From the NCBI GenBank assembly GCA_018238545.1, contig JABCTC010000001.1, forward strand, positions 64,001 to 128,000: a stretch of DNA of 64,000 nt. Reading direction: 5' to 3'. The translations under genes were made by a program, and so were the position numbers. This DNA comes from Candidatus Heimdallarchaeota archaeon (GTDB taxonomy: Archaea; Asgardarchaeota; Heimdallarchaeia; Heimdallarchaeales; Heimdallarchaeaceae). Numbering within the stretch: the first letter of the stretch is position 1; every line of letters begins with the position of its first letter. The notes under the pieces are model-generated. The model saw only the letters and a list, made by a program, of their open reading frames with translations. It had not been told where the DNA came from and did no database searches. This document shows positions 52,469 through 55,818 of the stretch, piece by piece.

Positions 52469-52586
52469 CACAAATTAATAAATTTGGCTTCTTTCTTTTT
52501 CCATTATGATGCAAAGATCCTAGGTATTTCTTGCTTTGTAAACAATCCTTTTAAGTTACTACATTTTGTCAAATTGGTTTGAGATT

Positions 52587-54011
52587 ATGAGAATAGGTCT
52601 TACATTTGATGATGTTCTTCTTGTACCAAAAAGGTCATCTGTTTTCTCTAGGCGTGATATAGATACTTCTACACGTCTTTCCAGAAATATCAATTTACAA
52701 ATCCCAATTGTTTCTTCTAACATGGATACAGTCACAGAATCACGTATGGCTATTGTTATGGCGCAACAAGGTGGAATAGGTATTATTCATAGATTTATGA
52801 CTGTTGACGAACAAGTTTCTGAAGTTAGAAAGGTTAAACGTTCTGAAATGATAAGAATAGACAATCCTTATTGTCTTCACCTTGAACATACTTTAGCTAA
52901 TGCTAAAAAAATGATGGATGATAAGGGTATTTCAGGTATTCTTGTTACTGATGATAAGGAGAAACTTATCGGGATTCTTACCACTCGTGATATCCTTTTT
53001 GAGGAGAATGGTGATGTTAAGTTAGCTGATTTGATGTCTACTGATTTAATCACAGCTTCTCCTGATATCACAATAGAAGAAGCTCAAGACATGTTGAAGA
53101 AGAATAGGATTGAGAAACTCCCCTTAGTAGATTCAAAAGGTTATCTGAAGGGTTTGATCACTTCTAAAGACATTATAAAAAGCAAAGTTCTTCCTGATTC
53201 CTCAAAAGATGCAAAAGGTCGTTTATTGGTTGGAGCTGCTATTGGTGTTAGAGGAGAATATCTACAAAGAGCTGAAGAATTAATTAACGCAAATTGTGAT
53301 GTTCTGGTTATCGACATAGCTCATGGACACTCTGATTTGGCTATCAATACCATAAGAGAAATAAGGGAAAACTTTGGCGATGTAGAGCTCATTGCAGGCA
53401 ACGTTGCTACAAAAGATGGCACTAAAGAATTGATTGAAGCTGGTTGTGATGGTATCAAGGCAGGAGTGGGTCCCGGTTCCATCTGCATAACAAGAATCGT
53501 TACTGGAGCTGGTGTTCCTCAACTTACAACAATTATGGATTGCTCGGAAATTGCTAAAGAGTATGATGTACCAATTATCGCTGATGGAGGTGTTCAGACA
53601 AGTGGAGATCTCACAAAAGCTATCGCTGCTGGTGCTTCAACTGTAATGATAGGTGGAATGTTTGCTGGCACAGAAGAAAGTCCAGGCGCATCTGTTCTAC
53701 GTCAAGGTAGAAGGTATAAGGTTGTCCGAGGTATGGCTAGTCTAGGGGCTTCTTTAGGAAGAGAATCAAGAAAGAAAGGTTCTTTTGATGAGCTTGATTT
53801 AGGGAGCATTGTTCCAGAGGGTGTTGAAGCAATGGTACCATATAGAGGTTCGACGGTGGAAGTTCTCGAACAGTTAGTAGGTGGATTACGTAGTGGCATT
53901 AGCTATTGTGGAGCTAAGAACATCAAAGAGATGCAAAAGAATGCTGAATTCATTCAAATTACTTCAGCTGGAAGAACTGAATCAGCTTCACATGATGTAG
54001 AGAAGATATAG
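52587..54011 (+). CDS. guaB: IMP dehydrogenase
   Basis: [19 protein letters not shown] pair, [28 protein letters not shown]. Confidence 0.95.
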
Positions 54012-54084
54012 CTCTTCTCCTTAATTTTTTGCTACAAATTTTTGGTGCAAATAACTTATGACATGAATTCTATCTGAATTCTTT

Positions 54085-54230
54085 AGAAGTACCTAGGTAC
54101 ATCATGGGGACGCCACGAACCCTCCTACCCCGCCCACATCTTTTTGTAAAGATGCTTACGGTTCGCTTTTGGTTTTTAAGATGTAGACTCGAGGATCACC
54201 ATAAAGTTGGTGCATATCTACAATCCTCAC
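54085..54230 (-). ncRNA. stand-alone (orphan) TnpB omega-RNA-like guide RNA
   Basis: 54105-54170 is colinear with the tnpB 3' scaffold 4967-5032 and shows compensatory changes; TTTATATA box at 54257-54250. Confidence 0.7.
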
Positions 54231-54312
54231 TGGATAATCTGTTTAACCCTATATAAATACCAAGAAAAATATACAAACAACTTATAAGTAACAACCAAAC
54301 CTTTGCACAGCA

Positions 54313-55818
54313 ATGGTGAATTATGGGGCTATTTCAGTTATCATTTTCAAAGTAAAGAACAACCAACCTTACTTTTATTTAGTTAAACGAAGTTCAAATA
54401 TGCCTATTTTTCCAGATACTTGGACACCTATTGCTGGTACTATAAATAAGGATGACCAAGAAGTCTATTCGTTCCTTTACAATAAATTGGGTAACATTAT
54501 CGATGATATGAGCTCTAGACTTACAGCTGTTAGACTTATGCTAGAACGAAATTTGCTCTCACCCTTTGAAGAAGAGCAAGCAAATAAAACTGAACAGGAT
54601 GTCTATGAAAGGATAAAGAATTTAGATTCTGATTTATTGAGTGTTTATCTTCATTCAATGATTCCCTCTGGTTTTGAAAAAATTAATAATGGAGAAAATA
54701 CTTTCAATGTTAAACAATACATTTTCATATCTTCAGGAAGTAGTATTTTTGAAAGACTAAATCTTATCAATAAATCAACTATTTACATTGATCCTAGATA
54801 TAAATTAGAAACTAAATCCAGATGGTTCTCTGCTAAACAGATAAAGAAGTTCTATGAAAAATCTAAAAAATTATTCCTTCCCTCTTTTGCTTATCTTATA
54901 CATTTGATTACTGATAAAGGAATGAAACTTATCGAAGCATCTCGTAGTCTAGTGAATATATTGGAAACTAATGAATCTGTGCACTACCAAATTCTACCTT
55001 TCATTTGGAGATATATGACTCAGGCATTAACTTTACCTCCGTTTCACACTACCAATATCTATGTTATTGGAGATAAAAGAAAATACATTATCGATCCCGG
55101 AGCAAATAGTGCATCTGATATTGTGAATCTTATAAGTTTTATTGAAGATCACATAAACGAAATTGAAGGCATCATTTTAACTAGTGCAAATGCTGATCAT
55201 TGTAATCAAGTTCTAGAACTGAAAAAAAGATACAATTTCCCAATTTACGCTTCTCATAATATAACAGGAATTATGGAAAGAGAAGGATGTGTGATTAATC
55301 ACGAATTAAAAGAAGGTGATAGAATTCAGTTAGGTCCCTACGAACCTACTGGTGAGAGCAACTGGTTTATGGAAGTTATAGATCTTCCTGGCAACTCTCT
55401 TGGATGTATTGGCTTATGGGATTCTAGAGGAATAATCTTCACTGGTTCAACACTACATAAAACACTAGTTAACACTCCTGGTCCTTACCCTAATTCCTTT
55501 GATGATTTATTTAGAAGTTTAAATAAACTGAAAAAATATCCAGCTCGTTTTGGACTTTCAGGTCATGGTAACTTAATAGCTGATGTGAATGCTTCGATAT
55601 CACTCAATCTAAAAAGAATGAAATGGTCAGAAAAATCTATTTTAAAGTATCTCAAGAAAGGTATTTCTCAGATAGATGAAATTGTTGACACGCTTATTGT
55701 TAAAGATCTACCCATGTGGAAAAGAATGACAAGAAATACCATTGTAGCTACTCTTGATAAACTGGTTCTTCAAGAAAAAGTTCTTCGAAGAGGGGATGGT
55801 TACTTACTCTCAAAGTAA
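54313..55818 (+). CDS. Nudix-like + metallo-beta-lactamase-fold + wHTH fusion (LACTB2-like), degenerate metal site
   Basis: TLPPFHTTNIY, IIDPG, TSANADH in place of THxHxDH, LSGHG. Confidence 0.7.
   Translation: MVNYGAISVIIFKVKNNQPYFYLVKRSSNMPIFPDTWTPIAGTINKDDQEVYSFLYNKLGNIIDDMSSRLTAVRLMLERNLLSPFEEEQANKTEQDVYERIKNLDSDLLSVYLHSMIPSGFEKINNGENTFNVKQYIFISSGSSIFERLNLINKSTIYIDPRYKLETKSRWFSAKQIKKFYEKSKKLFLPSFAYLIHLITDKGMKLIEASRSLVNILETNESVHYQILPFIWRYMTQALTLPPFHTTNIYVIGDKRKYIIDPGANSASDIVNLISFIEDHINEIEGIILTSANADHCNQVLELKKRYNFPIYASHNITGIMEREGCVINHELKEGDRIQLGPYEPTGESNWFMEVIDLPGNSLGCIGLWDSRGIIFTGSTLHKTLVNTPGPYPNSFDDLFRSLNKLKKYPARFGLSGHGNLIADVNASISLNLKRMKWSEKSILKYLKKGISQIDEIVDTLIVKDLPMWKRMTRNTIVATLDKLVLQEKVLRRGDGYLLSK

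Follow-up and report, generated by a model that had tools for sequence, protein, structure and literature searches.

Between guaB and the gene for a metallo-beta-lactamase-fold hydrolase, the 64,000-nucleotide stretch of a Candidatus Heimdallarchaeota genome analyzed here (the window) carries a gene-less mini-element on its minus strand, which we call the orphan element. With a probability of about 0.8, we regard it as a non-autonomous, RNA-only OMEGA mini-transposon, that is, a PATE-like standalone omega-RNA, and it is probably a selfish parasite that borrows TnpB in trans for staying in place. The kind has already been published, as standalone mobilized omega-RNAs and as omega-RNA-bearing PATEs; the member described here is new and well supported, has unusual ends and comes with a hint of expression. 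It would represent a clean natural case of a promoter-driven, protein-free guide RNA of the TnpB type in an Asgard archaeon, and it reveals no new defense or regulatory system.

Boundaries, copies and empty sites

The first-pass annotation of this DNA had described an orphan omega-RNA at 54085-54257. Alignment of the copies showed that the element is not unique but multicopy and that it is wider, spanning 54283-54058 (Table 1). Conservation begins after TTAT at the left boundary and stops after TCAT at the right one, and the element measures 226 bp in the window and about 236 bp in most copies. The statement that no tnpB ORF is attached to the window copy was confirmed; neither an ORF nor tnpB was found inside it, and the 226 bp hold no effector or transposase gene.

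Table 1. Features of the orphan element, its surroundings and the tnpB element, in window coordinates
Feature	Position	Strand	Basis or remarks
Gene-less mini-element (orphan element)	54058..54283	-	Alignment of copies; absent here in relatives
Target motif TTAT (predicted TAM), host DNA	54284..54287	-	31/38 parsed left boundaries
Left end	54258..54283	-	T-rich, TTTGTA(C/T)A motif, no hairpin
TATA box (TTTAWATA)	54250..54257	-	Position relative to left end equals the tnpB-element promoter position
5' structured RNA module	54179..54228	-	Two nested helices, possible alternative pairing
Core in common with tnpB 3' end (omega-RNA scaffold core)	54105..54170	-	43/66 to window tnpB
3' domain and right end	54058..54105	-	ATGA(T) pairs with terminal (G)TCAT around two hairpins
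Predicted guide (host flank)	54038..54057	-	Copies diverge from here on
Metatranscriptome-contig cover	54045..54209	.	165-nt contig, cold-seep run X20
guaB (IMP dehydrogenase), right neighbor of the insertion	52566..54011	+	PF00478
Metallo-beta-lactamase-fold hydrolase gene	54313..55818	+	PF00753; orphan element within its TATA-like box
Solo tnpB element, family A	4867..6298	-	Ends ATAT and CATCAT; guide starts at 4866
tnpB, split into 321-aa and 142-aa frames	4940..6188	-	PF01385 and PF07282; 1-nt insertion near 5350

The host genome contains six full copies (that of the window and those on contigs C38, C40, C42, C109 and C114), among which the window copy has the lowest covariance-model score. 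It also contains partial copies, namely, one truncated on its 5' side, two halves at contig edges and three decayed remnants. A pattern scan of GTDB genomes yielded 49 loci, all in Ca. Heimdallarchaeota; tnpB was joined to the orphan right end in none of the 49, and no coding parent with that right end was found among them or among 20 intermediate model matches. The scan with a covariance model built from the copies, proposed in the first-pass annotation as a search for more orphans, detected full-length copies in 12 genomes belonging to two genera, and none in the other searched families of the order.

Lack of conservation at the guaB locus in relatives was one of the outcomes that, according to the first-pass annotation, would refute its reading, and this outcome was observed: the orphan is absent there in 11 of 11 relatives. 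Two of these loci (in G016 and G010) are empty sites at which TTTAT runs straight into the right flank, and the nine further relatives also carry no orphan element at guaB. Relatives without the element were likewise found for three other orphan loci of the host genome, and at further loci a copy that is intact in one species has a decayed ortholog in another. These empty sites and decayed orthologs indicate a mobile element that comes and goes rather than a kept host locus. The empty sites also show that the element inserts precisely after TTAT. One insertion is common to three species with the same flank (L003/L040, L006/L072 and L011, in G007, G011 and G012), and it is interrupted by another element in G012.

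In typical copies, the left end and the right end form an imperfect inverted repeat (15-16/24). A general target-site duplication was considered and rejected, as 10-11/12 nt matches between left end and flank occur in only 2 of 38 copies. The left end of the window copy is shortened (54272-54283), its first 12 nt matching its own right flank at 10 of 12 positions, and copy L058 has a likewise shortened left end, with an 11/12 match to its own right flank over the first 11-12 nt. Matches of this quality arise once in 1400 among mismatched pairs. The two shortened ends may stem from local duplication or from repair after cutting.

On the plus strand, the target TTAT belongs to a TATA-like box (TTATAA) located 25 nt before the hydrolase ATG at 54313, and the left end of the orphan element rebuilds TTATAA on that strand. 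The same box-to-ATG spacing was found at 7 of 37 insertion sites versus 4.5% of random TTAT sites, an enrichment partly explained by intergenic bias, since the random-site background includes coding sites.

A covarying RNA with a tnpB-like core

The ungapped 66-nt match reported between 54105-54170 and the tnpB 3' end (4967-5032), both on the minus strand, was recovered with 43 of 66 positions identical; across 50 doublet-shuffled windows, the top ungapped score was 35 and the mean 32.4. The orphan core is closer to other tnpB subfamilies (46-51/66, the tnpB copies of G016 reaching 51/66) than to the window tnpB, and the orphan covariance model R1 matches tnpB ends with E values of about 1e-11 to 1e-17. 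An Rfam scan of the window returned no match. The interpretation of the orphan as an omega-RNA-like scaffold devoid of a tnpB gene is supported.

The orphan RNA, of approximately 173 nt, is composed of the 5' module, the tnpB-like core and a 3' domain closing on TCAT, and it offers a compact scaffold free of coding constraint. In an alignment of 37 copies, pairing holds in 97.8% of the cells, and double-sided changes were seen in 15 of the 45 pairs, counts that are somewhat inflated by the relatedness of the sequences and by a structure partly derived from them. None of 500 shuffles was as high, and slid controls gave 3 to 5 pairs. The proposed selection of the structure independently of coding thus held, and compensatory changes are present in the window copy too. 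The variable segment of 16-18 nt forms a hairpin in both the orphan and the tnpB end, as first described, and this hairpin (helix 4) has double-sided changes in five of its six pairs among the 37 copies. Helices 1-2, in the 5' module, include five pairs with double changes, and helices 6-8, in the 3' domain, are 98-99% paired. Because the ATGA:TCAT helix hardly varies, it is predicted rather than shown by covariation.

The compensatory change noted earlier between CGAACC and GGTTCG turned out to be peculiar to the window copy. Family-wide this helix is 72% paired, and one of its pairs forms in 1 of 35 sequences; GGAT(A)C closes a local hairpin (helix 5) rather than a long-range pairing. An alternative 5' pairing (columns 3-8 with 35-40) has five conserved pairs with one-sided changes only. 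The joint alignment-wide score of this alternative helix and the CGAACC/GGTTCG pairing set was not above that of shuffles.

Relatives of the 5' module occur in other orphan subfamilies, whose right ends are different; this recurrence speaks for an RNA-only lineage of long standing rather than for fresh deletions. A likeness of the module to tnpB codons (RGLF region) failed the shuffle tests (p = 0.64 and p = 0.32), and no relationship between the module and tnpB coding sequence was detectable. Loci L014 (G018:C71), L238 (G011:C40) and L249 (G005:C108) represent further gene-less omega-RNA subfamilies, which combine a related GGA(T/C)TGTAG 5' module with 3' ends of the tnpB type that close in TCATCAT.

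The promoter-like TTTATATA box at 54257-54250 was confirmed. Its promoter-like character was borne out by its placement: in 41 of 43 copies it precedes the first RNA helix by 24 nt, and the spacer in between varies in sequence. In tnpB elements, the left end has its TATA box at the corresponding place, 22-23 nt upstream of the ATG, and the orphan's "own promoter" is therefore most likely the left-end promoter of the element.

In run X20, a cold-seep metatranscriptome, one 165-nt contig with a depth of 45 is identical to 54045-54209, its strand and ends being unrecorded; there was no cover elsewhere in 53400-54900, flanking genes included. The contig includes 13 nt of locus-specific flank and the private variants of the window copy, and thus derives from the locus of this copy and not from a paralog. 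Transcription of the orphan element from this locus into the flank is hinted at by this single contig from one run, available as contigs only, for which DNA carry-over is possible.

It may be that the RNA of this mobile element is no longer compatible with TnpB, the conserved structure serving transposition or being a by-product of the left-end promoter. This explanation would account for a 5' module and a 3' domain that differ from those of tnpB-linked RNAs, for the lack of conservation of the long-range pairing first proposed and for the parent tnpB not having been found. Nevertheless, the core common to tnpB ends is the best-conserved part, the helices covary as RNA and contain many G-U pairs, the RNA extends into the flank, and orphan and tnpB elements have the same target motif. 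We consider a loss of TnpB compatibility unlikely.

Guide, targets and possible partner nuclease

The guide had initially been placed right after the ..CCA at which the core ends. The following 20 nt are conserved in 8 orphan copies at different loci and in 20 tnpB copies; being shared, within either family, by copies whose loci are unrelated, the presumed guides are scaffold. Past ..CCA, conservation ends approximately 47 nt on for the orphan (TCAT, 54058) and 100 nt on for the tnpB element (CATCAT, 4867). The actual guide is predicted to start at 54057 and to equal the flank of the insertion. This window guide matches the empty site of G016 at 20 of 20 positions, directly behind TTAT; TTAT followed by the guide is present in the empty allele and absent from the filled allele. 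In G016, an orphan (L053, C118) and a full tnpB element (L242, C280), lying in paralogous sequences, have the same right flank and would thus carry nearly the same guide.

A special link between the orphan and the tnpB gene 49 kb away, as suggested at first, did not stand. Alignment to an intact paralog revealed the 1-nt insertion near 5350 in the window tnpB. As this copy is frameshifted, intact TnpBs exist elsewhere and other subfamilies are closer to the orphan core, the 49-kb distance is meaningless. The window tnpB element has an imperfect terminal inverted repeat (25/32). Intact tnpB copies elsewhere encode 405-419 aa, and outside the window the host genome has ten TnpB ORFs that are uninterrupted and retain the three RuvC motifs, the elements with intact TnpB having the same TTAT and TCAT boundaries as the orphan elements. 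The RuvC-II glycine and later glutamate of TnpB resemble the rearranged RIIr-5 type (PMC10691335), which is a resemblance and not a tree. From these sequences, use of the orphan RNA by TnpB in trans is plausible. Two other groups of TnpB were observed in the host genome: family C (G000:C62:24326-25704 and five more), which is bounded by TGAT and ACTCAT and has inverted TTCCG motifs, and a further family of 492 aa in two copies (G000 C62:60084-61829).

PATEs often encode omega-RNAs that need TnpB in trans, and a TnpB whose guide is the flank behind the TAM cuts the empty allele, repair of which restores the element (PMC10055086). By analogy, the left-end promoter of the orphan element would make the omega-RNA directly, and intact TnpB from other elements would load it in trans. 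The complex might then cut TTAT plus flank in element-free alleles, after excision or on the sister chromosome, and repair of the cut allele would copy the orphan element back. The filled site would be spared because the element's own end is TCAT and the TAM is TTAT, as in an IS607 IStron, and a transposase supplied in trans would move the element itself. The known empty target, the predicted TAM TTAT, about 40 covarying variants and the hint of expression make TnpB trans-loading directly testable.

The initial proposal was broader, namely, a host-domesticated, CRISPR-less multi-guide system for defense or regulation, in which dispersed guides would direct TnpB to foreign DNA or to genes of the host. 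A promoter of its own, a covarying structure and the RNA contig are consistent with such a system, as are its persistence across two genera and the few insertions with the same flank in two to three species. However, the guides are local insertion flanks, the guaB locus is empty in 11/11 relatives, and orthologous copies decay. When eight guides were compared with the host genome, no TTAT-plus-guide target was found except one site with 4 mismatches; in viral contigs, the window guide had no exact TTAT-plus-guide match, and the element end likewise had none. A domesticated system is very improbable, and for the window copy the defense reading is largely refuted.

That the orphan is a decayed, functionless tnpB end left by deletion is extremely improbable, and for the orphan family this is refuted by covariation and precise insertion: such remnants are known in the genome (a promoterless deletion mini at C111:9865-10064, in which the left and right ends of family A are simply fused, and a bare tnpB 3' end at C62:3980) and the window copy scores lowest of the full copies of this genome, but the orphans, present in 12 genomes, constitute a separate family that has its own ends, with compensatory changes, a fixed promoter spacing and an identical RNA contig.

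Ends and the mobilizing enzyme

Standalone omega-RNAs (Altae-Tran et al. 2021, as presented in PMC10691335) are mobilized, have no effector or transposase and are active in trans. Like those outlined in that source, the orphan has effector loci in the same genome and its guide just outside the right end; unlike them as outlined there, it has a 5' module and a right end for which no coding parent was found, and an Asgard host. It also resembles the PATE-like IS200/IS605 minimal elements of Geobacillus stearothermophilus (Meers et al. 2023, PMC10055086) in being gene-less, with a tetranucleotide target motif, a TCAN right end, no duplication and an encoded omega-RNA, and the expected role of both is retention through cutting of the empty site. 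In contrast to these PATEs, the orphan ends are imperfect inverted repeats, with no DNA hairpin on the left: orphan left ends showed no more folding than shuffled sequences (z 0.1 to 1.6), and the right end does have a hairpin. In 24 genomes of the genus, with a completeness of 72-92%, the search detected the controls but no Y1 TnpA (PF01797). Given the missing left-end hairpin and the lack of Y1 TnpA in these genomes, the orphan element is not a strict IS200/IS605 PATE, even though it inserts 3' of a short motif, TTAT, without duplication, as such PATEs do.

The ends of IS607 elements show no duplication, a core dinucleotide in common and an imperfect inverted repeat with short repeated motifs, the canonical core being GG (PMC6188088); in the IS607 CboIStron, the target is TGGG and the element's own end TCGG (10.1101/2023.11.20.567912). 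Similarly to IS607 (PMC6188088), the orphan inserts without duplication, and its TTAT target and TCAT end share a core dinucleotide, AT, and differ at -3, which mirrors TGGG versus TCGG in CboIStron. Unlike IS607, it has a core of AT and not GG, its inverted repeat reaches the termini, and the cognate serine TnpA was not found beside these TnpBs. The imperfect inverted repeat and the short repeated motifs of IS607 ends also have counterparts here: in four of six tnpB copies the ends are inverted at 22-25 of 32 positions, versus 4-9 in direct orientation, and family A tnpB ends have repeated TTGTC motifs. A relative of the family C TnpB (45% identical) is preceded by an IS607-type tnpA in another Asgard. 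With their AT dinucleotide, inverted short motifs, lack of a left hairpin and lack of duplication, the orphan ends point to an IS607-type serine enzyme.

The IS607 TnpA of the host genome is paired with another, long TnpB and with unrelated ends. No other repeated transposase was found in the genome self-comparison, and a metagenome scan and two contigs contained solo TnpB genes with no transposase beside them. The IS607 tnpA is followed by a TnpB-like ORF of ~630-650 aa at G000:C82:18142-20904, C71:12832-15584, C102 and C72 (L031-L034), and this family has 45 fragments in the genome and is also present in relatives. In G012, a mini of this family is inserted into an orphan element (L011, L056).

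Loci of aCas1-TnpB with flanking repeats and a downstream GTTCACTCA motif have been reported in Asgard archaea (PMC10691335), and the ..GTCACTCAT end of family C in the host genome resembles that motif. Unlike in these loci, cas1 adjoins no examined tnpB or mini-element; neither in 24 cas1 loci nor in 30 tnpB loci from across the phylum were the two genes found side by side. Solo cas1 genes with inverted repeats of 56-93 bp and without a polymerase gene were observed at L135 (G040:C36), L126 (G023:C39), L127 (G000:C36:20350-20860) and L133, and the gene is broken in every copy seen; such a unit is a minimal transposon resembling casposons or aCas1 elements. The repeats include TTTTTGTCGA, a sequence similar to the TTTTTGTC motif at the ends of family A tnpB elements. 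Casposons generate a long target-site duplication, of about 14-15 bp. Membership of the orphan in the casposon or aCas1 transposons was rejected, with no long duplication (2/38 short matches) and no linked cas1. No link of the solo cas1 to orphan ends was found, its inverted repeats being different. It is improbable that an enzyme so far unconnected with standalone omega-RNAs, for example the solo Cas1, moves both the RNA-only elements and the AT-core TnpB elements that partner them. If this Cas1 did so, integration of the Cas1 type, TnpB and guide cassettes with their own transcription would together make up a three-part CRISPR-like parasite in Asgard archaea.

Three serine recombinases of 260-270 aa are also encoded in the host genome (G000:C6:7488, C88:39972 and C26:29240). 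They are not IS607-like and have a C-terminal recombinase domain, with homologs across the genus.
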